In this document: one piece after another, positions 3,936 through 50,124 of the stretch
Numbering within the stretch: the stretch's first letter is position 1
Layout of the letters: each line of letters opens with the position of its first letter
Source of the DNA: Shigella phage MK-13
Strand: one strand, 5' to 3'
Length of the DNA stretch: 64,000 nucleotides
Sequence record: MK509462
Notes under the pieces: generated by a model
Seen by the model: only the letters and a program-made list of their open reading frames with translations
Told to the model about the DNA's origin: nothing
Database searches by the model: none
Translations under genes and position numbers: made by a program

Positions 3936-3966
3936 GGGGCTGCTATAATAGCAGCTCCTTTTGTTT
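3936..3966 (+). terminator. Hairpin (ggggctgctat-a-atagcagctcc) followed by TTTTGTTTATT; terminator with a TATAAT hexamer in its loop
   Basis: About 11-bp stem and T-rich tail directly after the 3905 stop; loop sequence TATAAT. Confidence 0.5.
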
Positions 3967-3979
3967 ATTGGAGCAGTCT

Positions 3980-4642
3980 ATGTCCTACTCCCTCAAGGGG
4001 TTGCTCAAGCGCCCCGTCCACACATTCATTAAACCGCCTGTCGTAAAGGGGATCTACCCAGCACGAGGGCAACTCTATTACGTCAAAGGCTCCAATGGTA
4101 GCGGCAAATCCACCGTACCGTCTCAGCTGGCGGAGAGGGATCCTCAGGCGTATGTTGTGACACATGACGGCAAGATTATGTTGACGGTCTGCCCGTCATT
4201 CAACGTGGTGTGTATCGGCAAATATGACAAGTCAAAGTCCAAGGGGGTTGATTCCCTGAAGGATACTGAACAAATGCTCTTCGCCCTGAGCATCGCTGAT
4301 CTACCTGAATATCAGGTATACGATGTGATCTTCGAAGGCATTATCCCTTCAACTCTACTGAGTTCCTGGATCCCCCGCCTGACGCGCCCACCGCGCGAAC
4401 TGGTTGTTCTCTTCATGGACACCCCTCTTGAAACCTGCATCGCCCGTGTTAAATCACGTAACGGCGGTGCGGACTTCAATGAGAGCCTCGTGGTAGAGAA
4501 GTGGGAGCGTGTTCAAGACCATCGCCAGCGCCATAAAGGCTTGTTCCCTACGGTGGCCGCAGGTATGATGAAGTCTCACGGTCTAACAGTAGACCAGGCT
4601 GTAATGGCATTCCTCTGTCGTGATTTTGGGAGTATTGATTGA
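3980..4642 (+). CDS. P-loop kinase (Walker A GSNGSGKST); candidate nucleotide or DNA-base kinase
   Basis: ORF 3968..4642, ATG at 3980; Walker A motif near residue 40; stop overlaps the start of the ThyA-fold gene (TGATG). Confidence 0.55.
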   Translation: MSYSLKGLLKRPVHTFIKPPVVKGIYPARGQLYYVKGSNGSGKSTVPSQLAERDPQAYVVTHDGKIMLTVCPSFNVVCIGKYDKSKSKGVDSLKDTEQMLFALSIADLPEYQVYDVIFEGIIPSTLLSSWIPRLTRPPRELVVLFMDTPLETCIARVKSRNGGADFNESLVVEKWERVQDHRQRHKGLFPTVAAGMMKSHGLTVDQAVMAFLCRDFGSID

Positions 4643-5688
4643 TGGAAATCAAAGCAATTAACAACAATGACATGCTGAAGCAGGCTGTCTTGGCTATCCG
4701 CGAATACGGAATTGAATCTGATCCTGGTAATGCGGAGATCAACACCGACGGCACCCGATTCCTTGATGGTGTGACGATTACCGTGGATGATATCCGCAGC
4801 CGCTGGCTGTCTGTTGAAGGTCGTAACTCATCGGCTATCGCTGCCATCGGCGAGACCTTCTGGGTTCTGTCCGGGCGCGATGACGTTCGCTTCCTGTCCC
4901 GCGTGTTGCCCCGCGCCGCCAACTTTTCCGACAACGGCCACACATGGCGAGCCGCTTATGGTCCGCGTCTGTACGCCCATGGCCAGCTGGATAGCGTCAT
5001 CAACCGTCTGCGCAAGAACCCAAACACCCGTCAGGCGTACCTCACCATCTATGACCCGGCTCTGGATTCAGATGCTGGCCTGGCGAAGTTCAGCGAGAGC
5101 GGCGAAGCGAAGACTAAAGACATGGTGTGTAACCTGGCTCTGTTGTTCGCCATCGTTGAAGGTCGTCTGAACCTGACGGTCATCAACCGCTCACAGGATG
5201 TTCTGTGGGGTATGAGTTCAATCAACTTCATTGAGTTCTCTATTCTTCAGGAAGTGATTGCTCGGGTGCTGGGTGTTGATGTCGGCCAGTACAAGCTCTT
5301 CTCTAACAATCTTCATTACTACAACAATGAAGTCAGCCAGAAGCAGCTGGGCAAGATCACGAAGGACACCAAAGTAGAAGCTGGGTTCATCAACTCAATG
5401 ATTCACTTCAAGAACGTGACCAACCAGAACCATATCCGCAATCTGTTCACTGGTGTGCTTCATCACTGTGATATCGGTAGCCCGTGGGAAACTGTGGTCG
5501 CCCACCTGAAGGAATATGATGCTGATCGCGGCCTGATTGTACAGATGGCGTACTGCCTGTACTGCAAGCTGAACGACAAACTCATCAACATGAACCTGAT
5601 TCAGGATCATGGTTTGAACATTGCGCTCACCCATTCTCCAGTTGACCGCAAGATCGTTGATCCTAAGTTCCTGGAAGGTGTGGTATGA
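4642..5688 (+). CDS. Thymidylate synthase-fold enzyme, divergent; candidate pyrimidine (dUMP/dCMP) hydroxymethylase
   Basis: Divergent counterparts of ThyA motifs: RQAYLTIYDP (ThyA RRIIxSAWNP), Cys in DMVCNLALLF (catalytic-Cys region), NRSQDVLWGMSSINF (ThyA QRSxDxxLGxPFN); recognised from memory of family motifs. Confidence 0.6.
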   Translation: MEIKAINNNDMLKQAVLAIREYGIESDPGNAEINTDGTRFLDGVTITVDDIRSRWLSVEGRNSSAIAAIGETFWVLSGRDDVRFLSRVLPRAANFSDNGHTWRAAYGPRLYAHGQLDSVINRLRKNPNTRQAYLTIYDPALDSDAGLAKFSESGEAKTKDMVCNLALLFAIVEGRLNLTVINRSQDVLWGMSSINFIEFSILQEVIARVLGVDVGQYKLFSNNLHYYNNEVSQKQLGKITKDTKVEAGFINSMIHFKNVTNQNHIRNLFTGVLHHCDIGSPWETVVAHLKEYDADRGLIVQMAYCLYCKLNDKLINMNLIQDHGLNIALTHSPVDRKIVDPKFLEGVV

Positions 5689-6254
5689 TGTACCCGAACC
5701 TTGAATTCTTTACGGGGCGCAAGCGCTCCGGTAAGGACTTCTGTTTGGAGTCCCTCATCAGCTATCACCATCTACAGGGTGATATGGATATCCAGCGCCT
5801 TTCGTTCTCAGACGAACTGCGCCGGGTCGCCAACTACATTTACCCGTGGCTGCCAGCGGAGGTAGAGGATGCCGTGAAGGACGTTCCTTACGTCCACCCT
5901 GATAACCCCAAGGGCTTAACCCCACGGCAGATCTGGCTTCATCTCGGCAGCGATACGGGCTTGCGTTATGTACAGCCTGATCTGTTCCTGGCATTCTTTA
6001 AGCGCTTCCAGCTTCCTCTGGTGGAGCAGAACCCTCATGTACATTATATCGTGAGTGACCTGCGCACCCCTCAGGAATATGAATGGGCGCTGAGTACGAA
6101 ATGCCCTATCACCCGCATTTCAAAGGCCGACCGCGCTGGTATCATAGAGGACGATATAGAGGCTTTCATTGACAAGATGGAAGTGGACTACGAATTCCTC
6201 AATCCATTTGATGGTTGGGCACCGTTCGTTAAATTCTACGGAGAACGTAAATGA
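5685..6254 (+). CDS. Deoxynucleoside monophosphate kinase (T4 gene 1-like)
   Basis: N-terminus FFTGRKRSGKD matches T4 gp1 FLSGVKRSGKD; ATGA start/stop overlap with the upstream gene. Confidence 0.6.
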   Translation: MMYPNLEFFTGRKRSGKDFCLESLISYHHLQGDMDIQRLSFSDELRRVANYIYPWLPAEVEDAVKDVPYVHPDNPKGLTPRQIWLHLGSDTGLRYVQPDLFLAFFKRFQLPLVEQNPHVHYIVSDLRTPQEYEWALSTKCPITRISKADRAGIIEDDIEAFIDKMEVDYEFLNPFDGWAPFVKFYGERK

Positions 6255-8724: not shown

Positions 8725-8730
8725 TTGCCA

Positions 8731-10158: not shown

Positions 10159-10220
10159 ATTCAATATCGTGGGTCATAGGGTATAATTCTATGATCTGAA
10201 TGTTAAACCAGGAGCACATC

Positions 10221-10556: not shown

Positions 10557-10571
10557 CAAGAGGAACAACAA

Positions 10572-10892
10572 ATGTCTGTAGAACAAATCGGCTTTTATGC
10601 ACTACCGTCCGATCCCGAGTCTCGCCGCAAGCTGATGGGCGCGATTGAAAACTGCCGCGCCGCCCAGGTACGCATCAAATCGGAACAGACTTTCATTACT
10701 GAGACTCTGGCCGAGCTGGCGAAAGACACGGGCATTAAGGCCAGCGACCTGCGTAAGGTTGTGTCTGACCGCGCGAACGGCACCTACCAGAAAACGATCG
10801 AAACGAGCGAGAAGTATCAGGATCTTTATGAATCCTTGTTCCCGAACGCCAAGCCGGATCGCGACCCAAACGTTGATTCTGCTGAAGAATAA
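10572..10892 (+). CDS. Hypothetical protein
   Basis: 106 aa ORF with RBS (AGAGGAA) upstream. Confidence 0.45.
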   Translation: MSVEQIGFYALPSDPESRRKLMGAIENCRAAQVRIKSEQTFITETLAELAKDTGIKASDLRKVVSDRANGTYQKTIETSEKYQDLYESLFPNAKPDRDPNVDSAEE

Positions 10893-10912
10893 ACGGACCG
10901 AACACCAAGAAG

Positions 10913-12890: not shown

Positions 12891-12950
12891 TTCATTAAAC
12901 GATTCACCCCATATAATACATGGGAACTTACACAAACGAGGACCACACTA

Positions 12951-13559
12951 ATGTCACTGAAAAACTTTCTGAAACGCATCTTCACCACTGTTGAAGCCAA
13001 CGTCACCACGGGTCTGGATAAACTGACCGGCACCGAAAAGCGCCTGAACCTGGCCGCTCGCAAGCTGTCTGATGAAATCCGCCGCCTGGAAGAAGCCCGT
13101 GTCGCCAACGTTCGCAACGGCGTCAAGCTGAAGAAGACCGCAGAACAGAACCTGGGTGAAGCTGCCAAGCGCGAAGAAGTCCTGAAGGACGCCATCGCTC
13201 GCGGTGTCACGCCAACCCGCGCCGACGCCCTGATTGTCCTGCATCGCCGTCGTATTGGCGAAGCCCTGTTGGCTCAGGTGAAGGACATCGAAGCAAGCAG
13301 CGACAAACTGAACGGTGCGATCATTCAGCTGGGTGACAAACTGGACGAAGTGAAGTCCAACCTCGAGCTGGTTCGTGTTCAAAAAGAGACGAACGACCTG
13401 GGTCTGGTGCTCCCTGAAGATATCGATTATGCCGCTGGCATGACCACCATCGATATCGATGCCATCCTGCGCGAAACCGAAATCGCTGATTCGAGCTACT
13501 CAGCTAACAGCCCGTCGTCTATCGAAGCTGACAACTACCTCGCCAGCCTGAGCAAATAA
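12951..13559 (+). CDS. PspA/IM30-like coiled-coil protein (candidate membrane-stress or remodelling protein)
   Basis: N-terminal amphipathic FLKRIFTTVEANV resembles the PspA N-terminus (FSRFADIVNANI); rest is heptad-rich coiled coil; inference only. Confidence 0.4.
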   Translation: MSLKNFLKRIFTTVEANVTTGLDKLTGTEKRLNLAARKLSDEIRRLEEARVANVRNGVKLKKTAEQNLGEAAKREEVLKDAIARGVTPTRADALIVLHRRRIGEALLAQVKDIEASSDKLNGAIIQLGDKLDEVKSNLELVRVQKETNDLGLVLPEDIDYAAGMTTIDIDAILRETEIADSSYSANSPSSIEADNYLASLSK

Positions 13560-13601
13560 CATCGGAGGGGCTTATGCCCCTCTATCACTTCGGGGGATCT
13601 T

Positions 13602-14326: not shown

Positions 14327-14514
14327 AGTTCATTGAGACGGTAATGTCGGTTGTTATGACAGTCGGGGCATTGTTTGGCATAGCGTTGCTGTTCTTATGG
14401 TTCTTCTACATCGGTGTACGGTACTTAGAACACAAGAAACGCCGTACTAAGAAAGGGCGTCCAAAGAACGTCGACATCATTATCAGCCAAGCAAGATCCC
14501 GCACCCGCCAATAA
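14323..14514 (+). CDS. Small membrane protein with basic C-terminus
   Basis: 63 aa; TM-like VMSVVMTVGALFGIALLFLWFFYIGV followed by a KR-rich tail; ATGA overlap. Confidence 0.4.
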   Translation: MKFIETVMSVVMTVGALFGIALLFLWFFYIGVRYLEHKKRRTKKGRPKNVDIIISQARSRTRQ

Positions 14515-14525
14515 TCTATTGAAGT

Positions 14526-14560
14526 CCCCAGGGTTATAATAGCAGCACATATAACCCTGG
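14526..14560 (+). other. Intergenic hairpin (cagggttata...tataaccctg) carrying TATAAT in its 5' arm, directly upstream of the ligase RBS
   Basis: 10-bp inverted repeat; shares the 12-mer tataatagcagc with the hairpin at 3941. Confidence 0.4.
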
Positions 14561-14569
14561 AGACACCAC

Positions 14570-15994
14570 ATGATCCCTATCCTCGAAACAGTTCACCGAC
14601 TTCGCGAGACCAAAGGTAGCAATGCGAAGAAAGCTGTACTGACCGAAGCATTCAAGAACAATCCTGACTTGGCAGACTTCCTGCAATATGTCTATGACCC
14701 AATGACGTCTTTCTATCGTACCGAGTTGAAGCTCAGCGCGTACCCTCGCATGCTCGTGCGTGAAAAGACTGACGACATCAGCGAAGTCTATGACGTCCTC
14801 GATCAGATGGCGCAGCGTCTTGTCGGCGGTCAAAAGGCTGATGCCCTGCTGGCCTCTGTTGCTCTGAAGATGGACCCACAGTACCACGAACTCATCCAGA
14901 TGATCCTGGACCGTGATATCAAGGCGGGTATCGCCGAGAAGGGTATTAACGCCGCATTCAACGCTGCTGGGGGTACAGGTCGCCTGATCAACATTCTTCC
15001 GTATCATCGTTATGACAACATGACGATTGACCTGCTGAAGAAGATGGACTTCAAGCGCGGTGTCTACAGCCAGCTGAAGTCAGACGGTATGTTCGCCAAC
15101 ATCATCTGTCGATACAATAAAGAGCCTGAGATTCGCTCGCGCTCCGGTTCCCTTATCGCAGGCGGTTCGGTCGACAATCTGTCGCTGGTATTCAAAGATC
15201 TGATCTACGATGCGGGGATTGGTGAGAGTGTGTTCCATGGTGAACTTCTCGTTGTTGACCTCAAGTCGAATGCTATCCTACCTCGTGCTGTCGGCAACGG
15301 CAAACTCAACAGTGTGATTCAGACGGGTGAACCTCTGGAAGATCGTTATCAGGTGATCTACCGGGTGTGGGACGTCGTTCCTTACGAACAATGGTTCAAT
15401 GCCGAGCGCGTGGGCACCCCGTATGAGCGCCGCTTCGATATCATCCAGCAGTTGTTTGACGAAGACGATGGTCTGGTGCAGGTGCAGGAAACTCGTGTTG
15501 TTCACTCATTTGCCGAAGCTGTCGACCACTTCAAAGACGCGCTGGCTCGTAAAGAAGAAGGCACGATCTGTAAGGCCGCCGACATGCCGTGGGAAGATGG
15601 GACTTCCTCTGAAGGTCTGAAGCTGAAAATGGAAGTGGAGTGTGACCTTGAAATTGTTGGTTTCAACGAAGCCGACAAGAAGGGCAAACACGCCAAGACC
15701 TTTGGCTCCCTGCTGTGTAAGACTTCCGATGGCTTGCTTGTTGTTGGCGTCTCAGGGATCTCGGATGAGCTGAGGCTCCGGATGTGGGAGAACCAGGGCG
15801 ACTACATTGGCAAGATTGCCGCAGTGCTCTCCAATGGCGTACAGGATAAGACAGATGATGCGCTGAAGTCATTGTTCCTGCCACGCCTTGCGGAAATCCG
15901 TATTGACAAGAAAGTGGCCAACACGCTGGATGAAGTCTATGCGATTCAAAAAGCGTACATCGAAAACATCGTGTTCCTGTTGGAGTCTGCATAA
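14570..15994 (+). CDS. ATP-dependent DNA ligase (T4 gp30-like)
   Basis: 474 aa; adenylation motif I SQLKSDGMFA (T4 AQLKADGARC) with collinear flanking similarity. Confidence 0.8.
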   Translation: MIPILETVHRLRETKGSNAKKAVLTEAFKNNPDLADFLQYVYDPMTSFYRTELKLSAYPRMLVREKTDDISEVYDVLDQMAQRLVGGQKADALLASVALKMDPQYHELIQMILDRDIKAGIAEKGINAAFNAAGGTGRLINILPYHRYDNMTIDLLKKMDFKRGVYSQLKSDGMFANIICRYNKEPEIRSRSGSLIAGGSVDNLSLVFKDLIYDAGIGESVFHGELLVVDLKSNAILPRAVGNGKLNSVIQTGEPLEDRYQVIYRVWDVVPYEQWFNAERVGTPYERRFDIIQQLFDEDDGLVQVQETRVVHSFAEAVDHFKDALARKEEGTICKAADMPWEDGTSSEGLKLKMEVECDLEIVGFNEADKKGKHAKTFGSLLCKTSDGLLVVGVSGISDELRLRMWENQGDYIGKIAAVLSNGVQDKTDDALKSLFLPRLAEIRIDKKVANTLDEVYAIQKAYIENIVFLLESA

Positions 15995-16213: not shown

Positions 16214-16471
16214 ATGGACGAGCTATTCGCATTGGTGTGTACATTAACGTTCTTGCTGTCCTTGGTTGTCAGCTCGCTTGTGATGGTGCTGGTGTGGATA
16301 GCTATTCCCGACATCAAGAATCACAGGGTTCTCATCGCCGTGATGATCCTCGGCCTGAGCGCTTCCCTTACTCTTCACTATTCCAAACAGGAGTATAATC
16401 CTGACAAACATTACAAGACATTAGCGGACAGATACCATGAGTTTAAGAATGAAAGAGCTTCCGGTAAATGA
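16214..16471 (+). CDS. Small membrane protein
   Basis: 85 aa with two hydrophobic helices. Confidence 0.35.
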   Translation: MDELFALVCTLTFLLSLVVSSLVMVLVWIAIPDIKNHRVLIAVMILGLSASLTLHYSKQEYNPDKHYKTLADRYHEFKNERASGK

Positions 16472-21253: not shown

Positions 21254-22222
21254 TTAGAAGCTATCGCCTTCGGTTTCAAAGCGCCCTTTATGCAGAGGCT
21301 CCAGTTCGATGAAGGTCATGTCAACCTGTGTAGACACGATCCCATCATCCTTGTGTACTGCATATGAACTGTCCGGCGTTTCGTTGACGAACATGTTGGA
21401 CAGCACGCAGGTGGAGATGCGGTGGAGCCATTGGTTACGCTCACCATTGACCATGAACGTGATATCAAAGGTCGATGGATGCAGATAGAAGGCACTAGAG
21501 TTCTTGTTGTACTTGTACTCAGGGTACATGTGCATCTTGAACAAACGGATGATCTCACGGACCATCTTGGCTTCCTTCTGAGATCGCGGCGTGAATTTGA
21601 ATGTAAATGGAATCTCACGGTTGCGGACGCCCTGGAAGATCATCTCCACATACGGGTTGGTCATGGTGCCTGTGAACAACTCAAGGGTGTCATGGGCGTT
21701 AATGGTCGGTAGGAATGGAATGGACTCCGACGCAGATTGGATGGCCTTGGTGGCAGCGAATCGCCCCATCTCCTTCCCGACGTTCAATGCATCACCCAGT
21801 TTAAACTGAGTCATGTCTTGGGCGGCGCGGGAAAGGAACTGTGCCCCCATTCCAGCCAGCCCCAGCTCACTGCCATTCCAGCCAACGCCATAGTTGGTTG
21901 TAATGGACTCTGGCATACACAGAACAATAGATTCGTTCGAGCGAACGTGGCGCGCCCATGCATATTTGGTGATGGAACCAGACTTGGACCCATAGACCAC
22001 AGGAGTATTCCCCAGAGGGTTCTGTATTGGGTTCTCGACAGTCTGGGTAGCCGTGTCACCGTAAGATGAACCGGAGATGCGGTTGATGTTGAATAGGACA
22101 TAGTGTCCCAGGGTCTTACCCCCAGTGACGTCCAGGGGATAGGTCAATTGCTTCTGAGCCTGGGACAATCCCTTCGTGTTCAGAACTTTGATCTTATCGA
22201 TTGTCTTTTTGAAGTCGGACAT
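21254..22222 (-). CDS. Tail-tube/baseplate family protein (gp48/gp54-like)
   Basis: 322 aa; divergent from gp4 as gene 53 is in T4; N-terminal HYVLFNINRI weakly resembles the tube family motif. Confidence 0.4.
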   Translation of the reverse strand: MSDFKKTIDKIKVLNTKGLSQAQKQLTYPLDVTGGKTLGHYVLFNINRISGSSYGDTATQTVENPIQNPLGNTPVVYGSKSGSITKYAWARHVRSNESIVLCMPESITTNYGVGWNGSELGLAGMGAQFLSRAAQDMTQFKLGDALNVGKEMGRFAATKAIQSASESIPFLPTINAHDTLELFTGTMTNPYVEMIFQGVRNREIPFTFKFTPRSQKEAKMVREIIRLFKMHMYPEYKYNKNSSAFYLHPSTFDITFMVNGERNQWLHRISTCVLSNMFVNETPDSSYAVHKDDGIVSTQVDMTFIELEPLHKGRFETEGDSF

Positions 22223-22272
22223 GGTCTCAGCCCTTAAATAGATAGAGTGTTATGGCTATTTAGGACTAAATT

Positions 22273-22887
22273 ATGAGCAACTATCTTCAGGGGAAGTATA
22301 CCCCGGTTAATCCCAAGAAGTATCAGGGGAATGTGAACAACATCATCTTCCGCTCTTCGCTGGAGTTGGTGGCTTTCAAGTTCTGTGATATGAACTCCGC
22401 GATAGTGAAGTGGTCGAGCGAGGAGACTGTAATCCCTTACATTTCCCCAGTCGACGGGCGCACCCATCGTTACTTCATGGACCTCAAGGTCTGGACGCGC
22501 CGTGAAGGGCAAGAGGAACTGCAGGTCACCCTCATTGAGATCAAGCCCAAAGACCAGATCAAGCAGCCGAAGAAGACTCCGAACATGAAGGAGTCGACAT
22601 TCAACAATGCGATGCGAACCTGGTTGGTCAACTCTGCCAAGTGGGAGGCTACCCGTGAACTGTGTGCTAAGAAGAACTGGAAGTTCATTATCTGGACTGA
22701 AGAACATCTTGTTCCAGGTGAAGATCCGGATGTCCGCAAACAGTTTGAGCTGAAGTCGAAGAAGAAACGGGATATGGAGATGCAAGATCGCCGACATGCC
22801 GAACGCGTCAGGGTGCTGAAGGAACAGATGCGGAAGGAGATTAAACCCGCCCCAACGGAGCGGGATGATGGACTTCTATTACCTTAA
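22273..22887 (+). CDS. Head completion protein (T4 gp4-like)
   Basis: N-terminus YLQGKYTPVNPKKYQGNVNNIIFRSSLEL...IPYISPVDGRTHRYF parallels T4 gp4 (LYKGKFRPKNPEKYEGDINNIIYRSSWEL...IPYRSPIDNRYHRYF). Confidence 0.75.
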   Translation: MSNYLQGKYTPVNPKKYQGNVNNIIFRSSLELVAFKFCDMNSAIVKWSSEETVIPYISPVDGRTHRYFMDLKVWTRREGQEELQVTLIEIKPKDQIKQPKKTPNMKESTFNNAMRTWLVNSAKWEATRELCAKKNWKFIIWTEEHLVPGEDPDVRKQFELKSKKKRDMEMQDRRHAERVRVLKEQMRKEIKPAPTERDDGLLLP

Positions 22888-23516: not shown

Positions 23517-24026
23517 TTACTTGTCAGGGTTCACTAAAACAGGGGTGGATACCAGTTCGCCGTTCTTCACAGAATGCTGGACTACAGCACACTGATCGAC
23601 CATGCGATATACTTCAATTCCAGCAGCCAGCATTTCAATAATGCCGTCTGTGATTCGGTACGGTATATTGTAGATGACCTTCTTGATAGCGCAGCTTTTG
23701 ATTATCAGCTGAGTACAAACAGGGCATGGGCTGTGTGAGACGAACATCGTCAGATCAACGCGGTTGTCCAATGCTTCAGGGATGCGCATCAAAGCGTTCT
23801 CTTCTGCGTGGACAACCCCGACTGATACCAACTCACCGTCTACTTCCTGCTCACAGACATTAGGAGCGCCAGGAGCAGTCCCGTTCCAACCGATGGCAAC
23901 AGGTTGGTCGGTCTGTTCATCAACGATAACACAGCCGACCTTCAGGCGCCGAGCATAGCTGGACAGTGCATATGCATGAGCCGAGCGCATGTGCGCAAAC
24001 ATCATACGGGGCTTGATAGTCATCAC
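23517..24026 (-). CDS. dCMP deaminase (T4 cd-like)
   Basis: Zinc-binding cytidine/deoxycytidylate deaminase motifs HAEENA and SPCPVC. Confidence 0.75.
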   Translation of the reverse strand: MMTIKPRMMFAHMRSAHAYALSSYARRLKVGCVIVDEQTDQPVAIGWNGTAPGAPNVCEQEVDGELVSVGVVHAEENALMRIPEALDNRVDLTMFVSHSPCPVCTQLIIKSCAIKKVIYNIPYRITDGIIEMLAAGIEVYRMVDQCAVVQHSVKNGELVSTPVLVNPDK

Positions 24027-24424
24027 TCACCTCTCAGAAGACGGGCGAAACGTTCAACAATCCGGTTGCGCGGTTTCACAGGGACGACTTCATTAATTGT
24101 GATCGCCATCCTGTAATTGGTGGAAAAGTCACAATCCGATTCGAAGGTGTAAACCTTCTCACCAGAGTACCCACTTTTGTAGTAATCCTCACAGAGTTGT
24201 GAAGACTCTACGATGGAATTTGCCACCCTCCAGTGCCCTAAAAGATATTGCCCCTGCACATCATCTTTGATGACATCCAAAACTGCTTCGAATTCACCTG
24301 ACATGACGGTCCTGAACGCCACGTTCGCTTCGTCGCCCTCTGGAAGGTATGCGTGGGTTCTGGACCAAATTTCTACGCCATCATCAACTCGGACTAGGGA
24401 GAACCCCAGCAAATATCTTTTCAT
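24023..24424 (-). CDS. Hypothetical protein
   Basis: 133 aa; ATGA coupling. Confidence 0.4.
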   Translation of the reverse strand: MKRYLLGFSLVRVDDGVEIWSRTHAYLPEGDEANVAFRTVMSGEFEAVLDVIKDDVQGQYLLGHWRVANSIVESSQLCEDYYKSGYSGEKVYTFESDCDFSTNYRMAITINEVVPVKPRNRIVERFARLLRGE

Positions 24425-24744: not shown

Positions 24745-24779
24745 CTCTTAATAAACTAAGGGGAAGTATATACTCCCCC
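24745..24779 (-). terminator. Hairpin (ggggaag-tatata-cttcccc type) with T-rich tail on the minus strand
   Basis: GC stem with TATATAC loop between minus-strand genes; approximate coordinates. Confidence 0.4.
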
Positions 24780-24805
24780 TTCTTCAATAACCGCTGAATC
24801 TTTAT

Positions 24806-28195: not shown

Positions 28196-28220
28196 TTTGT
28201 CTTACCAAACAAGGGGTCAA

Positions 28221-28238
28221 GGCGGTAATGATACCGCC
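28221..28238 (-). other. Intergenic hairpin ggcggtaatgataccgcc flanked by T-runs
   Basis: 6-bp GC stem; TTTTTCTTC on plus strand; TATTGAAGAA motif adjacent on the minus strand. Confidence 0.4.
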
Positions 28239-28245
28239 TTTTTCT

Positions 28246-28656
28246 TCAATAGAGGTCTTCGGAAAAGAGTTCACGGAATGGGGTTGTCTTCAGGCGCACC
28301 TGATTGATTTGTCCGGCTTCACGGGCTACGACGCAAGCCTCTTCACGAGTGAGGAAGTTGCCCTGATTGTCGATAAAGCCCTGTTCACGGGTATGGGTGG
28401 ATTTAATCACACCAGCCTCTTTCAGGATCTTGAGCTGGCTGTTCATGAATTTGCTGTGGTGACGGTCGGCAACGACGATCACGTCACCATATTTGTTGGC
28501 GGCAGCGACCACACGGCGCTCCCAGGCACCTTCGGCAGGAAGGTCACGGGTGTACAATGGAACCATCGTATCACCGATGTCATTCCCCTTCACCTGTGAG
28601 AACAACTTGCCTTCAGTGCCCGTTGGGAGTTCGCGAAAATAACCTAGTAATTTCAT
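28246..28656 (-). CDS. Hypothetical protein
   Basis: 136 aa ORF. Confidence 0.45.
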   Translation of the reverse strand: MKLLGYFRELPTGTEGKLFSQVKGNDIGDTMVPLYTRDLPAEGAWERRVVAAANKYGDVIVVADRHHSKFMNSQLKILKEAGVIKSTHTREQGFIDNQGNFLTREEACVVAREAGQINQVRLKTTPFRELFSEDLY

Positions 28657-29261: not shown

Positions 29262-29303
29262 AGCACAACCCTCGCAGGTGAGGAGGGGCGAACCCCTCCT
29301 ATG

Positions 29304-30636: not shown

Positions 30637-32550
30637 TTATTCATCCTCAGTTTCAAACAGGCAAACATCGCTAAACCAGGTTTTGCGGTAATCGGCGGCC
30701 TCATCACCGAAGCCATTCTTCAGTGACTGTTGATAGCCATCGTCCAGCGTGACCGTCGTAGTATACGCATCCAGGTTGTTTAGAATACGTTTGAAGTCTT
30801 CAGTGCTGTTACCGCCAAGACCTTTCAGATATTTCTTCTTCGTGATCTTCTTGGCATCAGGCGTCTTCAGGAACTCCTCATACTCGGCGTTGTTCATGAA
30901 CTCATGCATCACCTTACCACACCATACACGCATGTAAGGGGTGCGCAGGAGCTTCAGCCTGCCCTGACGGACGTACTCCGGCCAGTAGGTGCAATACAGG
31001 GTGATCAACAACCCACGGATGTGAATACCGTCATCGTCCGCATCGGTAGCCACAACAGTCTGTGGGTAGCGGCTGATGTCAAGTGGCTGACCGGGCACTG
31101 CGCCGCCGTGAATCGTACACAGGTTCTTGAACTCTTCATTGTTCATCACCTTTGTGCGCGGGGCGTTCAGGCAGTTGATGAACTTACCACGAAGCGGGAA
31201 CAATCCGATCTTTTTGGTGTCACGGGCGTTCAGGATAGGATTGGAGGCGCTATCACCCTCGGTCAGTAGCAGGGAGCATCCGCTGCGGTCACCACGGGCG
31301 GTCGCCGGGTAATACTTCTCAATCTCACGATAATCCCGCTTGCTGATATCCTTCTTGGCCTTTTCAAACTCAGCATCATCCTGCTCATTGCGCAGGGAAG
31401 CCAGTTCTTTGCTCAGACCAGCCATAACGAACTCAAGCGCCTTGCGGATGAGTTTGTCACTCGGTTTGTACGACGTACCGAACTGGCTTACAGGAGTGGT
31501 CATGCGCTCCTTGGTCTGGCTGTCAAAGCGCGGGTTGTTGATGTCGACGGCAATGAACAAGGACATGTGGTTCTTGATCATGGCAGGTTTCAGCTCGGTC
31601 TTGAACTTCTTCACCAGCTGAGGACGAATCGCAGCCACGATCTGGTCGGCGACATAATCAACGTGAGGACCACCGATGTGGGTGGCAATAGAGTTCACGT
31701 ATGATGCGTGCATGAACGTACCGGATGAAGGGGCTACAGCAACCGACCATTCACCAGATTCATCAACAGCGGAACCAGCATGGAAGTAATCAACGAAGTG
31801 ACCAAAGCGGTCAATCCGGATTTGCTTCCCGTTCAGCACAACCTTCAGGCGCGGGTTACACGCAGCCACTTCAAACGCGCGGCGATAGATCATCAGCAGG
31901 TTGTTCTGGTCAAGCCCTTTGACGCCCAGGCGAGCATAGTCAGGAATCCAGGCGATGGTGGTGCCGAACTCTTTCGGTGTATTGCTGATGACCGGATTAG
32001 ACTTCTTGCTCATGTTGTCTTCAAACAGCTGGGCATAAGACTTCTTGCCGTCGCTGGTAGCAACACGGAACCACTTTGAGAACACGTTGACGAGCGAAGC
32101 CCCTTCACCGTTCTGGCCACCAGACTTCTGGTTGTTGTACTCTTCGTCTTCGTCGTTGAAGTTGCTGCCTGCATACAGGGAGCCGAAGAGCATCTCAGGC
32201 AACCACTCGTTGGTAACACCGTGCTTCACAACAGGGATGCCCCCGTTATCGGCCACGATGATTTGACCGTTCATCGGGGAAACCGTGACAGTGATTTCCG
32301 TCAGGGATTTACCCTCAGGCGTCTTGCTGTGGTCAACACAGTTGGTGATGATTTCATCAAACTGTTTGATCAGGGCGGGGGAGTACTCAAAGTTGTCACG
32401 GAAAATGACTTGGTCTTTGGTTGGGTCGTACACCCACACCGTACCAACAGACGAACGGATGCTGCCCAGATGACGCTCTGGGCGAAGGAGGATATGCTCG
32501 ACGTGAGTGAGCTTCTTGTACTTGCGTTCAATATCAATTTTATCAGACAT
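30637..32550 (-). CDS. DNA topoisomerase II large subunit (T4 gp39-like, GyrB-like ATPase + Toprim), single unsplit ORF
   Basis: 637 aa; N-terminal GHKL region (HILLRPERHLGS, FDEIITNCVDH, VADNGGIPV) as in T4 gp39; continuous reading frame. Confidence 0.75.
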   Translation of the reverse strand: MSDKIDIERKYKKLTHVEHILLRPERHLGSIRSSVGTVWVYDPTKDQVIFRDNFEYSPALIKQFDEIITNCVDHSKTPEGKSLTEITVTVSPMNGQIIVADNGGIPVVKHGVTNEWLPEMLFGSLYAGSNFNDEDEEYNNQKSGGQNGEGASLVNVFSKWFRVATSDGKKSYAQLFEDNMSKKSNPVISNTPKEFGTTIAWIPDYARLGVKGLDQNNLLMIYRRAFEVAACNPRLKVVLNGKQIRIDRFGHFVDYFHAGSAVDESGEWSVAVAPSSGTFMHASYVNSIATHIGGPHVDYVADQIVAAIRPQLVKKFKTELKPAMIKNHMSLFIAVDINNPRFDSQTKERMTTPVSQFGTSYKPSDKLIRKALEFVMAGLSKELASLRNEQDDAEFEKAKKDISKRDYREIEKYYPATARGDRSGCSLLLTEGDSASNPILNARDTKKIGLFPLRGKFINCLNAPRTKVMNNEEFKNLCTIHGGAVPGQPLDISRYPQTVVATDADDDGIHIRGLLITLYCTYWPEYVRQGRLKLLRTPYMRVWCGKVMHEFMNNAEYEEFLKTPDAKKITKKKYLKGLGGNSTEDFKRILNNLDAYTTTVTLDDGYQQSLKNGFGDEAADYRKTWFSDVCLFETEDE

Positions 32551-34459: not shown

Positions 34460-34530
34460 TTGGTGTATCCTCAGTTAGGTTCCGCTCATGGGGAACGGGT
34501 CCATTATACACCGAATACTGGAAATGAAAA

Positions 34531-38337: not shown

Positions 38338-38368
38338 CTTGTAGTTCCCACGTTGGTTAACAGGACTA

Positions 38369-41125
38369 TTATGCCCTGATGATGGAATTTGAAATAACGT
38401 CCAAGTAATCCGAAGAATTTTCAATCGGGTTCAGAGCGCTTGGTTTGTAGTTCTCTTTCAAGAACCGGATAACACGGTGGCGCTCGATGGTCAATCGGTT
38501 TTCCCGCCTTGCTTTCAATGACGGAGTCCTCGATATATCAAACGGCGTAAATCCATGAGACCGCAACACATCCGAAGCGTAGCCAAAGATCTGTAGCATC
38601 TGATGTTCTGAACGGAAGATCTTTTCGTCACGCTCGTTGGCGTACAAATTCACGTTAAGAGAATGTATTGTGTCCTGGAAATGGCTAAAGCGGCGCTTGT
38701 CATTGATTGAAACCGGGGCTTTCGCCAGGCTTTGGTAATGACGTACAGTCTGCTCATCCAAGATATCGTCCACGACTTTCATTAACTTGTTGTAACGGCT
38801 GACCAATTTGCCATAACGATCGTCTTCAACATCACCAAACGCCTGGTGAACCAGACGGCTCCCGTATTTTAAACGATCCGCCCCAAGGCGCATGCGGCGG
38901 TATGATTCCAGTATGCGCCTGGCGCTATCGCGCTCCAACATAGGCTTCACGTTTTCCAACATGATCTTCAGGATTTCATCGATCGGGATGAAGACTTCTG
39001 GGAACTTCTTCATCATTGGCACGGATTTACGGCGAGCCAGGAAGATCCTTCTGTGAACGTTCAGTATGTCGCTGATATACACTGGCTTGCCTTCATCGTC
39101 AACACTGACTGCGTGCTCGTACAGAGATTTACGAATACCCCGAGCCGCCGCCGTCGTCAACGTTCTGTCCATCACCTGATGGATACACTCATGGCCGGAC
39201 ACCTCAATGTAGACGATGCGCTCGCCCTTGTTGATAATATCTGAGATCTGGTCGCCCGTCAGTTCTTCTTGCAGGCAGATATCGAAGTTGCTGGATGTGA
39301 ACGGAAACAGGCCAGGGTCTTTGGTGACCGGAGGCGTGACATACGTCAGTTCGTTCATGAACTTGACTTCAGCAGGCTCCAGCACCGCACTCAGCCAATC
39401 GACGAACTTGTCAGCGAAGCACAGATAATCAACCGTCGTTTCTTCTTTACCAATCCAAGTTTCAAAGAAATCATAGAGAGCCTGAGAATTATTGAACGCA
39501 GGGTTGTCCTTAGATTGGTTGCGCTTGGTGACATAGGATGTGTTCGGCTTGGCCACGATGACCATCGTTCCTGTATCTTTCAGCTGCTTGATCTTCAGAT
39601 TACGTGCACGAACACTATCTTCGATCACCACAGTAACGTGCTGTCCACGATCAATCCACTTCTGGATTTCTGAAATGGTCAGGGTACTGGACTCACCCCA
39701 GTCATAGAAGATCTCCATAGAGAACGGCGATGACAGCTCATTGAACGGCGCGGTATGGCCATAATCGCGATCAATCTCAACAGGCAGCGGGTAACGGTAA
39801 TATGAATCATGGAAGCGCTTGTCCGCCGGGTATTCCTTTTCAACCATCTTACGGAACCCGCTACCGAACATTTCGCTCAGTCTTGCCTTCTCCATATACA
39901 GGGCAAGAGGACCACGCTTACACGCCAACTCCAGGTCGCGCATCTTTTCTGCCAAGATTGCATTGGCGGTGCCCTTAAACTCCTCAGAGAGCGTCTCACG
40001 CGTGAATTCGTCATACGACAGGTCTTCACGCGACGGCGGTACGTTCAGGGAACCGAGTTCGAAGAACGTATAGGACGACGGGAACTTGCTCATGATGGAA
40101 GCAGTGTCCGGGTCCAGCTGGTCCAGGTCAATCGGGTACGACACACCACCCATCACAGCATAATGGGTGTTCCCCTGGCCTTTCGGCTGGATGTACGTAT
40201 TGTTGACCTTGAAATCATAACTGATATCTTCCCAGCTGAAGCGGTATGAAGCGTTCTCAACAATTGGGCGTTGTTCAGGGCGCATAACACGACCAAGACG
40301 GACCAGTTCATCGGAGAATGCAGAGAAACGAGCGTTCTTCACCGGGATCTTCACCGTCATACCGTTGAACTCATCAGTGTCTTCCGGCTTTGGATCACGG
40401 GTTTCAAGATCTTTGGTGATCAGATCAACAGTCGGGATGCGCTTGGCGTTCAGGTACATCAGGAAGCGATGGAGTTTACCGTTCATGCGGCTTTCCACAG
40501 TGAACGAATCCGATACCGCAAATGGTGATTTGGAGCCAAGACCGAATGCCCCAATCTGATCATCATCTTCTTCCTTCGTACTGTGGAAGAGGGTGGTGTA
40601 CAATCCAGGCGTACGAATGATCTCGCCGTCTTCACGACGGAACACCAAAGACCCATTGTAGAACCCTGGAATACCGATGACTTCGGCCGAATCGGGGATC
40701 TCGTCTTCCTTCACGACCATGTTGCCTTCCAGCAGCACCTCATCTTCCTGCGCTGGGATGGCTTCACCGATGATCTTCTCAAGCGGCAGACCGATACCGT
40801 AATCACGGATTTCCAGCCATGGCTCAAAGTCATCAGGCAAATGCACAACAACTCGTGTGCCCTTCGGTGCCAGGTATTTGCTGTGGCGGGCAGGAGGGGG
40901 AGTGAGAGGCGCGTAGTGGGATGCTACCATGCGGTGCATACGATCACGCATGCCATGGGAGTCGATGGCGTTACAGGTGGTTTCACGCAGGGCTGCAGCC
41001 TCTTTGTAACGATACAATGATGAGAACAGAGTCTCAAACATCTTGTCGTTCATTTTGACGTTAAACGCCTGCCCCTGAATGGAAGACGACGAGCGGATGA
41101 AGTGCTCGGACTTGCGCATTTTCAT
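38369..41125 (-). CDS. rIIA: rIIA-like protein with N-terminal GHKL (HATPase_c) ATPase domain
   Basis: 918 aa; N-box ETTCNAIDS, G1 box DYGIGLP, G2 box GAFGLGSKS; within 6 kb of the topoisomerase genes, as in the T4 rII-60-39 region. Confidence 0.55.
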   Translation of the reverse strand: MKMRKSEHFIRSSSSIQGQAFNVKMNDKMFETLFSSLYRYKEAAALRETTCNAIDSHGMRDRMHRMVASHYAPLTPPPARHSKYLAPKGTRVVVHLPDDFEPWLEIRDYGIGLPLEKIIGEAIPAQEDEVLLEGNMVVKEDEIPDSAEVIGIPGFYNGSLVFRREDGEIIRTPGLYTTLFHSTKEEDDDQIGAFGLGSKSPFAVSDSFTVESRMNGKLHRFLMYLNAKRIPTVDLITKDLETRDPKPEDTDEFNGMTVKIPVKNARFSAFSDELVRLGRVMRPEQRPIVENASYRFSWEDISYDFKVNNTYIQPKGQGNTHYAVMGGVSYPIDLDQLDPDTASIMSKFPSSYTFFELGSLNVPPSREDLSYDEFTRETLSEEFKGTANAILAEKMRDLELACKRGPLALYMEKARLSEMFGSGFRKMVEKEYPADKRFHDSYYRYPLPVEIDRDYGHTAPFNELSSPFSMEIFYDWGESSTLTISEIQKWIDRGQHVTVVIEDSVRARNLKIKQLKDTGTMVIVAKPNTSYVTKRNQSKDNPAFNNSQALYDFFETWIGKEETTVDYLCFADKFVDWLSAVLEPAEVKFMNELTYVTPPVTKDPGLFPFTSSNFDICLQEELTGDQISDIINKGERIVYIEVSGHECIHQVMDRTLTTAAARGIRKSLYEHAVSVDDEGKPVYISDILNVHRRIFLARRKSVPMMKKFPEVFIPIDEILKIMLENVKPMLERDSARRILESYRRMRLGADRLKYGSRLVHQAFGDVEDDRYGKLVSRYNKLMKVVDDILDEQTVRHYQSLAKAPVSINDKRRFSHFQDTIHSLNVNLYANERDEKIFRSEHQMLQIFGYASDVLRSHGFTPFDISRTPSLKARRENRLTIERHRVIRFLKENYKPSALNPIENSSDYLDVISNSIIRA

Positions 41126-41204
41126 AGTATAGAAATCCTATCAATGTCAAAGGGAAACATATTGATTGAGTGGGTATGATACTGTGGTGGGCTTCAATTG
41201 AAAA

Positions 41205-41222
41205 AGCCCTCGGCTGAGGGCT
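41205..41222 (-). terminator. Hairpin gccctc-ggct-gagggc with flanking T/A runs
   Basis: 6-bp GC stem; TTTTTC on the minus strand downstream of gene 41232..41579. Confidence 0.45.
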
Positions 41223-41231
41223 TTGTTCAGA

Positions 41232-42762: not shown

Positions 42763-42800
42763 AAAAAGGGGATAGAGCAATAATACCCTATCCCCTTTTA
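42763..42800 (-). terminator. Bidirectional terminator-like hairpin (ggggatag...ctatcccc) flanked by A-run and T-run
   Basis: 8-bp stem; AAAAA upstream and TTTTATTGAAGAA downstream on the plus strand. Confidence 0.5.
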
Positions 42801-42811
42801 TTGAAGAACGA

Positions 42812-43933: not shown

Positions 43934-43945
43934 TTCCTCTTTTGA

Positions 43946-45444: not shown

Positions 45445-45653
45445 TTAGATTCACCCATGACGATAACGGAAGCGCCATTACGGAAGCGCCCATATTCAGG
45501 CGGAAGACCTTCGCGAACTTTCTGTGCGAACGCTTCAGAAACCACCAGACGGCCAACCAGAGGGTCTTTTTGTTTCGGAGTGGACTCAAAGTAATCACCA
45601 AAAGTCGCTTCCATATCCAGTAGGGACATATCTTCAATTCGTTTCATTGCCAT
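45441..45653 (-). CDS. Hypothetical small protein
   Basis: 70 aa ORF. Confidence 0.35.
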   Translation of the reverse strand: MAMKRIEDMSLLDMEATFGDYFESTPKQKDPLVGRLVVSEAFAQKVREGLPPEYGRFRNGASVIVMGESK

Positions 45654-45677
45654 GATGTATTTCCTTGCAAAAAGAAA

Positions 45678-45712
45678 GGGGAACGGGCTAATATTAACCC
45701 ATTCCCCTTTAT
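45678..45712 (-). terminator. Hairpin (ggggaacggg...cccattcccc) with T-runs
   Basis: Long GC-rich stem; TTTCTTTTT follows on the minus strand. Confidence 0.45.
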
Positions 45713-45736
45713 TGAAGAACGCAATCGCAATCAGAT

Positions 45737-45903
45737 TACTTTTTCTTCAGCTCGTCCAGTTTGGCTTCGATTTGTTCCAGGATGTCTTTACCCTTCTGAA
45801 CAATCACTTCACCGTCTTGCGCGTGTTTGCGGAATACCAGAGCGCCAGCTACGAAGCCGACAACCACACCAGGAAGCGCATAAACCAGCAGATCTTGTAA
45901 CAT
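45737..45903 (-). CDS. Small membrane protein (about 55 aa)
   Basis: Hand translation MLQDLLVYALPGVVVGFVAGALVFRKHAQDGEVIVQKGKDILEQIEAKLDELKKK; below the track size cutoff. Confidence 0.3.
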
Positions 45904-45939
45904 GATAATATCCTCACTTTATAGGTGAGGATATTTATA

Positions 45940-47647: not shown

Positions 47648-47708
47648 ATTGAAACGGCTGCCATAACCAGACCGACGAATAACAGATAATTAGACAACCG
47701 TTTCATGA

Positions 47709-48931: not shown

Positions 48932-48940
48932 GATGTCCTC

Positions 48941-49720
48941 CTATCGGACGTATTGATAATGACCAATCAAGCGGTTCACCACTTCAACAATATTGTGATT
49001 CAGGAAGTCGAAGTGGTTCTGGCCTTCTACTGGTTTAATATAAAGCATATCTTCCGAGTTCGAAAGATCCAGTTTTTCATAATTGCCCTGAGGAACAAAG
49101 ATGACGAAGATATTGTTCAGGCCGCACGGCTCAACATACTTCGGATTGTCATCAATCAAGACATCGCCTGCCAGCAGATGCTTTTCGTCAGTACTGACAA
49201 ATCCGTTGAAGATACCAGGGAACTTGTCGTAGACAAACTGGCGCTTGCTGCGCTCGTGTTCCGGCTCACACTTGGACACTGCGATGAATTCAACATTGTC
49301 AAAGTCTTCGAGCAGAATCTTCTTCAGATTCACCAGGAACTCGTAAGCACCAGGAAGCGGGTTCATCTTGGCGTACAGGTCAGGGCGACGCCACCAGTCC
49401 ATAGGATCACGCCCTGTAGGAGCATACATCCATTGCCCAGCGAGGTACACGCGGCGTATCAACCACGCCGGATGTGCACGTTCTCGCATCAGAATAGCCA
49501 GGTCGCCAGCATGAGCCATATAGCACTCTTTGGTGATCGGCTGGAACTGATATGACTTATGTTCCCCCGTAGCAATAGCAGCGGCAGCGATGTTCTCTTC
49601 GTTGAACCACTGCACCCAAGGGGAGAGGCTGTCGACCAGCGTCAGGTCAACATCCACGAGGACGCGATACAGACCACCGACCTTTGATTTCATATCATAG
49701 AGACAGACCAGGTTGTTCAT
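48941..49720 (-). CDS. HAD-superfamily phosphatase-like protein (possible 5'(3')-deoxyribonucleotidase or polynucleotide phosphatase)
   Basis: HAD motif I-like VLVDVDLTLVDS near the N-terminus. Confidence 0.4.
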   Translation of the reverse strand: MNNLVCLYDMKSKVGGLYRVLVDVDLTLVDSLSPWVQWFNEENIAAAAIATGEHKSYQFQPITKECYMAHAGDLAILMRERAHPAWLIRRVYLAGQWMYAPTGRDPMDWWRRPDLYAKMNPLPGAYEFLVNLKKILLEDFDNVEFIAVSKCEPEHERSKRQFVYDKFPGIFNGFVSTDEKHLLAGDVLIDDNPKYVEPCGLNNIFVIFVPQGNYEKLDLSNSEDMLYIKPVEGQNHFDFLNHNIVEVVNRLIGHYQYVR

Positions 49721-50067
49721 TTGTCTTCCTCAACTTTGTCGTAGCCCGTAGCAACGCACTGTTCTTCGGTACAATCCGCATACAGAACAACAGACGCCTG
49801 CTTCACGTAGGTGGTGCAGTGGTAGGTTTCGTCTTCCTGGATGGAATCGTCATAGTTGCAGACAGTTTGGAGCGGACCTGGGGTGGTGTTATCCAGCGCT
49901 GCATGTGCCTTGATGGTGTCTTCCATCTTGGCCACGGCTTGTTCGTTGGTGAACGTCGGCGCGTCGAGGTCAGGGGTTGACACGACGTCCGCCAGGGTAG
50001 AGCATGCGGTGGTAGAGAAAGCCAGAGCGCACACCAGAAGAATCTTATTGAGTTTCATTTCAATCAC
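49717..50067 (-). CDS. Putative lipoprotein
   Basis: Signal peptide with lipobox-like LAFSTTAC; 116 aa. Confidence 0.45.
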   Translation of the reverse strand: MIEMKLNKILLVCALAFSTTACSTLADVVSTPDLDAPTFTNEQAVAKMEDTIKAHAALDNTTPGPLQTVCNYDDSIQEDETYHCTTYVKQASVVLYADCTEEQCVATGYDKVEEDK

Positions 50068-50094
50068 CTGTTTGTCAAAGGGTTAACAGGGGGA

Positions 50095-50124
50095 ATTATA
50101 TCCCCCTTTGGTTTATTGAATCAA
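50095..50124 (-). promoter_or_regulatory. Sigma70-like promoter (-35 TTGATT, 18-nt spacer, -10 TATAAT inside a GGGGG/CCCCC hairpin) upstream of the lipoprotein gene
   Basis: Minus strand aaggTTGATTcaataaaccaaagggggaTATAATtccccc; overlaps the polymerase stop; approximate coordinates. Confidence 0.45.

Follow-up and report, generated by a model that had tools for sequence, protein, structure and literature searches.

Promoter-type hexamers within intergenic hairpins of a ViI-like Shigella phage as candidate stop-and-restart signals

Can the hairpin that closes one phage message also carry the promoter that opens the next, or do the two signals simply share a narrow gap? The question is raised by 64,000 nucleotides of Shigella phage MK-13 (sequence record MK509462; hereafter the window, i.e., the whole stretch of DNA analysed), in which a preliminary description had pointed out three TATAAT hexamers, the putative -10 elements of promoters, lying in terminator-like hairpins. 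We refer to them as site 1 (upstream of a gene for a deoxynucleoside monophosphate (dNMP) kinase-like protein), site 2 (upstream of the DNA ligase gene) and site 3 (downstream of the DNA polymerase gene). The co-occurrence of hexamer and hairpin at these sites is not due to chance, and the three are part of a class of about ten composite intergenic signals. As to their function, our judgement leans, if only slightly, towards stop-and-restart signals that work like the PeSL (promoter-early stem-loop) cassettes of T4-type phages.

The window comes from a ViI-like myovirus in the genus Agtrevirus (Ackermannviridae); over a 6-kb sample, Shigella phages ChubbyThor and Ag3 and Salmonella phages P46FS4 and SKML-39 match it at 97-98% identity. 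We obtained its gene map by carrying over the SKML-39 annotation with tblastn. The window contains replication and nucleotide-metabolism genes, some baseplate genes, rIIA and rIIB, the DNA polymerase gene and a cluster of transfer RNA (tRNA) genes. Orthologous regions were taken from ~20 Ackermannviridae genomes in IMG/VR, including LIMEstone1, Kuttervirus-type, Klebsiella-phage and Serratia-phage lineages and two more distant genomes.

Hairpins with a -10-type hexamer at or beside the tip

Site 1 lies on the plus strand between a hypothetical gene ending at 3905 and the dNMP kinase-like gene, which starts at 3980 and opens an eight-gene block. The terminator-shaped GGGGCTGCTATAATAGCAGCTCC at 3936-3958, with TATAAT at the hairpin tip, was found as first described. 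The complete hairpin (3933-3961, GAAGGGGCTGCTA/taa/TAGCAGCTCCTTT) has 13 pairs, is terminator-like in a consensus scan and gives an RNA fold of -20.6 kcal/mol (z = -5.2). TATAAT (3944-3949) sits across its apex, half of it in the loop and the other three bases in the uppermost pairs; the TGc before it makes an extended -10, and the hexamer ends 30 nt before the ATG. Downstream, the T-tract TTTTGTTT (3959-3966), kept in all orthologs, gives the element an intrinsic terminator shape on the gene strand. Upstream there is a box, TTCAATA (3923-3929), whose centre lies 16 nt before the hexamer and which is unchanged in 11 of 11 distinct orthologous sequences. The whole 50-nt element is near-invariant, with flanking genes down to 77% protein identity: TATAAT is unchanged in the orthologs save LIMEstone1 (TATTAT), and the changes in the stem preserve pairing (a G.U shifts along the stem, and a G.U is replaced by A-U).

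At site 2, also on the plus strand, TATAAT (14535-14540) had been placed in the arm of a hairpin at 14526-14560, and it indeed begins in the 5' arm and runs into the loop. The hairpin (14524-14564) is made of an outer GTC/GAC and the arms CCAGGGTTATA (14528-14538) and TATAACCCTGG (14550-14560) around an 11-nt loop, with an RNA fold of -20.4 kcal/mol (z = -5.1). Its box, TATTGAA (14517-14523), has the inverted orientation and is centred 16 nt before the hexamer, which ends 29 nt before the DNA ligase ATG at 14570. The ligase Shine-Dalgarno (SD) sequence GGAGA (14559-14563) lies within the 3' arm. Over eight distinct orthologous sequences TATAAT is unchanged in all and 97.3% of the cells of the stem are paired, one pair occurring as A-U, G-U and G-C. 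The loop 3' of the hexamer varies freely, with TATAAT, box and stem constant. In most phages blastn homology begins at window positions 14510-14513, and the box is kept although at least five different upstream sequences adjoin it. Sites 1 and 2 have in common the identical 12-mer TATAATAGCAGC (3944-3955 and 14535-14546, plus strand); this identity is lineage-specific, as the site 2 copy diverges past the hexamer in other clades.

Site 3 is read on the minus strand, between the DNA polymerase gene (ending at 50121) and a DUF7292 gene (starting at 50058). Here too the preliminary description proved accurate: GGGGGAATTATATCCCCC at 50089-50106 encloses a minus-strand TATAAT, with TTGATT exactly 18 nt upstream, and TTGATT-18-TATAAT is promoter-like on the gene strand in the consensus scan (10/12 matches). 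The hairpin AGGGGGA/tataat/TCCCCCT (50088-50107) has TATAAT (50095-50100) as its entire loop. A TTCAATA box at 50114-50120, centred 15 nt before the hexamer, overlaps the TTGATT (50124-50119) that had been read as a -35. All clades keep the box, as does the distant genome L076, and the hexamer is unchanged in close clades. At this position three unrelated stems enclose TATAAT, GATAAT or TAATAT. Genome L076 has the stem AAGTGGGG/CCCCACTT around tgataatag (GATAAT), and genome L083 has AAGTTCAAAGG/tgattaatattg/CCTTTGAACTT, which encloses TAATAT and is followed by a strong T-run; in both, the hexamer again comes 13 nt after a TTCAATA-type box. The ortholog in the clade of L065 has a T-rich tail.

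Enclosure of the hexamer by the pairs of a minimum-free-energy fold (44-nt piece) was discarded as a test of this arrangement because 57% of random positions pass it, and we used in its place a contiguous-stem score and a census of hairpin apexes, in which a -10-like hexamer had at least 5/6 matches, with A2 and T6. Six of the 19 TATAAT copies found on both strands fall in the intergenic 5.6% of the sequence (P = 4e-4), all six in the sense orientation, toward the downstream gene (P = 0.016), and three of the six have a strong flanking stem, against a background of 4.6% (P = 0.002). A -10-like hexamer stands at the apex of 8 of the 22 strong sense-strand intergenic hairpins versus 5 of 199 in coding DNA (Fisher P = 2.4e-6). 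Orientation is informative only for exact, non-palindromic TATAAT copies; the comparison of sense and antisense -10-like apexes is weak, since AT-rich near-palindromic apexes read TATTAT, AATAAT or TATACT on the other strand. Hexamer, box and stem are kept together across Ackermannviridae genera, and across the ~20 relatives the hexamer is invariant or still -10-like, with stems that change with compensation at four further elements of the class (at 10182, 24758, 28219 and 38361).

Sister elements and their upstream box

A scan of the assembled 152 kb of SKML-39 yielded ten credible copies of the element. In the window, covariation is clear at 10160-10198 (plus strand), downstream of the primase/helicase gene, where a TTCAATA box (10160-10166) precedes the hairpin TGGGTCATAGGGT/ata/ATTCTATGATCTG with TATAAT at 10182-10187. 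Here 97.5% of the cells are paired, three compensatory pairs surround the invariant TATAAT, and the covariation score of 0.349, versus 0.235 in shuffles, is reached by 0 of 500 shuffles; in an ortholog from another clade the loop is exactly TATAAT. The remaining elements are on the minus strand. At 24758-24789 a TATTGAA box (24783-24789) accompanies the hairpin AAGGGGGAGT/atat/ACTTCCCCTT with a conserved TATACT, and the stem GGGGGAG/CTTCCCC becomes GGAGAG/CTCTCC in orthologs. At 28219-28251 the box is again TATTGAA (28245-28251), the hairpin AAGGCGGTA/tcat/TACCGCCTT and the hexamer TATCAT (TATTAT in relatives); a distant ortholog, in genome L137, has a new stem, ATTATGGGGTA/taatg/TACCCCATAAT, with TATAAT. 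The element at 38361-38393 spans the rIIA stop codon, upstream of rIIB, and combines a TTCAA box with CAGGGC/ataata/GTCCTG and CATAAT, its stem changing to CGGGGC/GCCCCG in other clades. Two elements end in a T-run and have a 14-nt string, CGTTCTTCAATAAA, in common: one at 42763-42805 (TTCAATA box at 42799-42805, hairpin AAAAGGGGATAGGGTA/ttat/TGCTCTATCCCCTTTT, TATTAT), kept in 12 distinct sequences, and one at 45669-45716 (TTCAATA box at 45710-45716, hairpin AAAGGGGAATGGGTTA/atat/TAGCCCGTTCCCCTTT, TAATAT). A related promoter-like element upstream of rIIA (41176-41202) has a -10 without a hairpin: the palindromic box TTCAATTGAA (41193-41202), 11 nt and TATCAT, directly after a terminator at 41203-41224.

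Two weak candidates were set aside, one being an in-gene hairpin at 16388-16403. The other, the 5-bp hairpin CCCAT/ATGGG around a TATAAT at 12908-12924 (plus strand; RNA fold -5.6 kcal/mol, z = -1.8), loses its stem in orthologs from other clades, which retain TATAATAC with TATAAT.

In all eleven promoter-like elements the box consists of either TTCAA ending at its centre or TTGAA beginning there, with the centre 15-17 nt upstream of the hexamer, at the positions already given and at others. The window has 27 copies of TTCAATA where 7.4 are expected, and ~15 of them lie in the intergenic 5.6%. The box centre falls near -28.5, ~7 bp too close for a -35. The distance from the end of the hexamer to the start codon is equally constrained (28-37 nt in all eleven), and the elements head tightly packed gene blocks without internal gaps. 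Scans of 16 small neighbouring proteins against Pfam and PHROGs for a reader of the box returned only a generic 'transcriptional regulator' family, for the product of 10572-10892.

Stop and restart, and the competing readings

Wobble pairs in the orthologous stems, with both kinds scored symmetrically, number 61 G.T versus 3 A.C. Because G.T is tolerated and A.C is not, neither a two-strand cruciform nor a protein-binding palindrome can account for the stems, and their differences between elements exclude a common operator. The sense strand folds at -21.4 versus -14.7 kcal/mol for the antisense strand at site 1, and at -12.1 versus -4.2 kcal/mol at 10182. The hairpin would be one of the sense strand. 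RNA is the simplest explanation, and folding of the non-template DNA strand is a less likely alternative; 'regulated initiation', as suggested by the preliminary description, finds no support if it is to work through a DNA hairpin. Rfam 15 at gathering thresholds returned no family at the hairpins, its matches in the whole window being two tRNA.

The elements all run in one order. After the upstream stop codon comes the box, centred ~16 nt ahead of the hexamer; a -10-type hexamer, TATAAT or a variant of it by one or two bases, stands at the tip between a G-rich and then a C/T-rich arm, which a U-tract may or may not follow; and a leader of 22-30 nt holding an SD sequence leads to the start codon. 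As stop-and-restart signals, they would work as follows. Hexamer and box would form a promoter for the host RNA polymerase from which the downstream early or middle block (replication, nucleotide metabolism) is started, and the lack of a proper -35 suggests that the box may be read by a phage factor. The two arms would fold as a hairpin in RNA coming from the upstream gene and would end that RNA where a U-tract is present, namely at site 1, 42763 and 45669, which have the full intrinsic-terminator shape on the transcribed strand. Elsewhere, hairpins without a U-tract may attenuate the upstream RNA, stabilise its 3' end or mask the next ribosome site (site 2). RNA from the embedded promoter would start inside the loop or the 3' arm, so that it would lack the 5' arm and escape the hairpin. 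The anatomy of the elements and its conservation, the compensatory stem changes, the wobble bias towards the sense strand and the constant spacings are observed; promoter activity, termination and a protein that reads the box are inferred from sequence and comparison.

The closest parallel is with the PeSLs described in the T4-type phages RB49/phi1, T4/PST and KVP40/nt-1 (Arbiol et al. 2010, PMC2839356; Comeau et al. 2014, PMC4122927). A PeSL is an intergenic cassette made of a sigma70-like promoter, an AT-rich upstream stretch, a stem-loop often with a G-run and a C-run, an SD sequence and a start codon; the stem-loop is most often located between -35 and -10 or over the -10, one such stem-loop terminated like rrnB T1, and one cassette gave ~13,000 Miller units (PMC2839356; PMC4122927). 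The elements studied here come from T4-related myoviruses as well and have the same order of parts: upstream stop, AT-rich stretch, promoter, G-run/C-run stem with G.T pairs, SD sequence and start codon, with a stable stem-loop over the -10 and an exact TATAAT at all three sites. RB49 cassettes that we inspected in sequence are shaped like the elements here, reading TTGACA...GGGGGTA/gtaata/TACCCCC and GGGGATAT/agcata/ATATCCCC, and the RB49 copies (genome L147, 14500-32300, minus strand) have in common a long leader, CATACCGAAACGAA...GGAGAATCAAA, and an upstream string, AAAAAGTTGTTGACA.

There are also clear differences. RB49 PeSLs have TTGACA at 17 nt, whereas sites 1 and 2 lack a -35 and only site 3 nominally passes as having one; the box here is instead TTCAA/TTGAA, ~7 bp closer to the hexamer. 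RB49 copies are alike over ~60-85 nt including the leader, whereas those of the window share strings of 9-14 nt at most, and the likeness of ~100 bp between copies that characterises PeSLs, enough for homologous recombination, is absent. Finally, core replication genes lie downstream here, in contrast with PeSLs, which are concentrated in hyperplastic regions, where they flank orphan genes and mark indel breakpoints. A recombination role of the PeSL kind is not evident: homology breakpoints pile up at 14500, 28220 and 45640-45660 and equally at many plain gene borders, and the neighbours of sites 1 and 3 are conserved; the elements show no clear link to hyperplastic regions or recombination breakpoints. 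We therefore file the elements as a variant of the PeSL kind, not as PeSLs in the strict sense.

Parts of these elements had been listed before. The PhiSboM-AG3 paper (Anany et al. 2011, PMC3121705, Table S2) gives predicted sigma70 promoters and Rho-independent terminators in separate tables for Ag3, a phage with 97% identity to the window. The entries Porf067 and Torf069, whose coordinates overlap, correspond to the hexamer and hairpin of site 1, Porf237 to site 3, and Torf021, Torf031 and Torf248 to the elements at 28219, 24758 and 45669, respectively. Site 2 and the elements at 10182, 38361 and 42763 are absent from the Ag3 lists, and the paper is silent on overlap, box and conservation (PMC3121705). 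The LIMEstone1 paper provides just counts of promoters and terminators.

Several observations weigh against stop-and-restart signals. On the promoter side, TATAAT is not enriched overall (the 19 copies compare with ~31 expected), the consensus scan found no TTGACA-like hexamer 16-18 nt upstream of sites 1 and 2, and the near-palindromic apexes of site 1, site 2, 24758 and 42763 are -10-like also in antisense. On the side of the hairpins, the fold of site 3 (-14.1 kcal/mol, z = -2.2) is only modestly more stable than that of shuffled sequence; covariation at site 2, where variation is too low, is not significant (190 of 500 shuffles do equally well), and site 1 is almost invariant and thus has too little variation for significant covariation. 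As for termination, a sense-strand U-tract is absent at sites 2, 3, 10182, 28219 and 38361, so that most of the class are putative terminators at best; no T-run follows the site 2 hairpin on either strand, and site 3 is terminator-like only on the antisense (plus) strand, where its T-run sits. On the gene strand the earlier label 'terminator-like' is right for site 1 alone. Likewise, the 'compact terminator-promoter units' proposed in the preliminary description are partly supported and seem the best reading for the class as a whole, and they suit site 1, but not site 3, which is no sense-strand terminator in this phage, or site 2, where the hairpin more probably masks the ribosome-binding site. 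The overlap of promoter and hairpin may also come just from intergenic gaps of 42-74 nt, without functional coupling. Our literature searches yielded neither a map of transcription starts or terminations in any Ackermannviridae phage nor a description of these elements.

A bolder version of the same idea, possible but doubtful in our view, is that hairpin-embedded hexamers and an orientation-free box near -28.5 define a new Ackermannviridae promoter class, in which a phage factor replaces the -35 contact as an analogue of MotA/AsiA and termination and re-initiation take place on the same ~30 bp, the released polymerase being passed to the embedded promoter. In T4 middle promoters a MotA box near -30 (TGCTTtA) is combined with a sigma70 -10, and this box is located approximately where the box lies here, not where a -35 lies. 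The likeness extends to a -10 of TAnnnT type, to a phage-specific box ~11-13 nt upstream that replaces the -35, and to a position upstream of replication genes and of rIIB; the sequence TTCAA/TTGAA, however, is unrelated to the MotA box, and it can occur in either orientation. MotA and AsiA are not mentioned in the Ag3 and LIMEstone1 papers, and no homologue search was made.

The narrow gaps could also house two independent signals, a promoter and a hairpin that stabilises or processes the 3' end of the upstream message, their overlap reflecting genome compactness. The lack of U-tracts at most hairpins, the sense-strand wobble bias of an RNA and the presence of plain hairpins without a -10 in similar gaps (13564-13583, the loop of which varies freely, and 29281-29300) all suit this explanation. 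It fits less well with the hexamer being at the apex, and not elsewhere in the gap, in 8 of 22 hairpins, and with its remaining there after the swap to an unrelated stem, which suggests joint and not accidental placement; moreover, the arrangement recurs in RB49. We regard such independent signals as unlikely.

About as unlikely is the possibility that the elements are translational gates like those of T4 genes e, soc and I-TevI, the hairpin hiding the ribosome-binding site in long read-through RNA so that only the short own RNA is translated, with termination incidental. Precedent exists in T4, where genes e, soc, 49 and I-TevI have a promoter within the DNA encoding a hairpin that sequesters the ribosome-binding site (Uzan and Miller 2010, PMC3014915). 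As in those cases, the promoter would be in the 5' strand or loop and the own RNA would be devoid of the inhibitory arm, a scheme that fits site 2 and a hairpin at 45901-45939 (minus strand). At site 2 the SD sequence GGAGA inside the 3' arm, not followed by a U-tract, has a predicted probability of being unpaired of 0.20 in read-through RNA versus 0.39 in RNA starting 7 nt after the hexamer; this effect is just twofold in silico. The hairpin at this site is more likely a mask of the ribosome-binding site than a terminator. At 45901-45939 a T4-late-type TATAAATA overlaps the 5' arm of AATATCCTCAC/GTGAGGATATT, the 3' arm contains the SD sequence and AUG of a 55-codon gene (45736-45903), and the predicted unpaired probability rises from read-through to own RNA from 0.00 to 0.40 for the SD sequence and from 0.02 to 0.51 for the AUG. 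However, the T4 cases use late promoters and bury both SD sequence and AUG, whereas most elements here are of TATAAT type and leave the SD sequence uncovered: at sites 1, 3, 10182, 24758, 28219, 42763 and 45669 it lies 10-20 nt from the hairpin and its predicted accessibility is not higher in the short RNA. The clear U-tracts of three elements also argue against gates as a general explanation, which we hold to be improbable.

Less probable still is that there is no promoter at all, the apex being AT-rich for structural reasons, its resemblance to TATAAT fortuitous and the elements just terminators or RNA hairpins. The lack of an overall excess of TATAAT in the window, the several apexes that are -10-like on both strands and the missing canonical -35 at sites 1 and 2 would be expected in that case. 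Yet a non-palindromic TATAAT stays constant while adjoining loop and stem bases vary, six of six intergenic copies are sense, and the distances from hexamer to box and to start codon are fixed; in addition, ordinary terminators of this phage mostly have loops of 4 nt (TTCG or GAAA, for example), and the equivalent RB49 cassettes are active promoters.

Action at the DNA level is very improbable. In N4, hairpin promoters for the phage-encoded virion RNA polymerase form on the template strand, with 5-7 bp stems and 3-nt loops, and they share with the elements a promoter within a short hairpin and conserved loop bases; the loop here holds instead a sigma70-type hexamer, and the wobble bias indicates a sense-strand RNA. 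A non-template hairpin that shows an unpaired -10 to sigma (as in N4 or single-strand promoters), or an inverted repeat that serves as operator of a dimeric regulator, would agree with a hexamer in or beside every loop, with a missing -35 that calls for other polymerase recruitment and, for the former, with G.T-only wobble, but the wholly different stems among elements and orthologs exclude a common operator, the 61 to 3 wobble ratio excludes a two-strand cruciform, GC-rich clamps flanking the -10 would impede duplex melting, we know of no precedent for host sigma70 using such a DNA hairpin, and an RNA hairpin is the simpler account of the same data.

If the elements are indeed stop-and-restart signals, they would lay out the transcription units in the replication and nucleotide-metabolism half of ViI-like phages, a group with members in biocontrol use (CBA120, LIMEstone, Kuttervirus). 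They would also show that promoters in stem-loops, known from T4-type phages, occur in a second family, where the upstream recognition element is different, and point to a factor that reads the TTCAA/TTGAA box. As self-insulating cassettes of ~60 nt (stop, restart, translate), they would be attractive parts for phage engineering. No new principle is involved: promoter-terminator cassettes and promoters in hairpins masking the ribosome-binding site are both established in T4 biology.

Late-type motifs and other features of the window

A late-promoter reading of the hexamers was rejected, as they do not match TATAAATA and lie upstream of replication genes; it is the window's structural genes that have motifs of the TATAAATA or CTAAATA type. 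Motifs of TATAAATA or CTAAATAG type precede tail-tube and baseplate genes at 975-1047 and 22213-22282. Another motif, CTAAATACCCC, occurs twice on the minus strand in a single 145-nt gap (56335-56351 and 56437-56451), and one of the copies falls in an arm of a hairpin, ATACCCCATAC/GTGTGGGGTAT. The motif has the look of a late-promoter signal specific to the family.

A hairpin of a different kind, GTTCCCCATGAGCGGAAC, is located at 34479-34496 (minus strand) in the 5' leader of an HU/histone-like gene, where a conventional terminator followed by a promoter precedes it. All clades retain the hairpin, the distant genome L137 with a compensatory GTCTC/GAGAC stem, and it may be an autoregulatory operator.

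The gene content of the window departs from that of SKML-39 in two places. The HNH endonuclease encoded between the two topoisomerase II genes of SKML-39 is missing (at 30637-30638), and an extra open reading frame of 133 codons (24023-24424, minus strand) is present between the dCMP deaminase gene and the next gene. The 58.6-63.3 kb stretch, empty in the transferred gene map, contains four tRNA genes at 59787-61019 (minus strand; Ile-GAT, Tyr-GTA, Asn-GTT and Ser-TGA), two of them confirmed by Rfam. Lastly, the product of the gene at 12951-13559 (plus strand) matches the PspA/IM30 membrane-stress family (Pfam PF04012, E = 1.9e-9).

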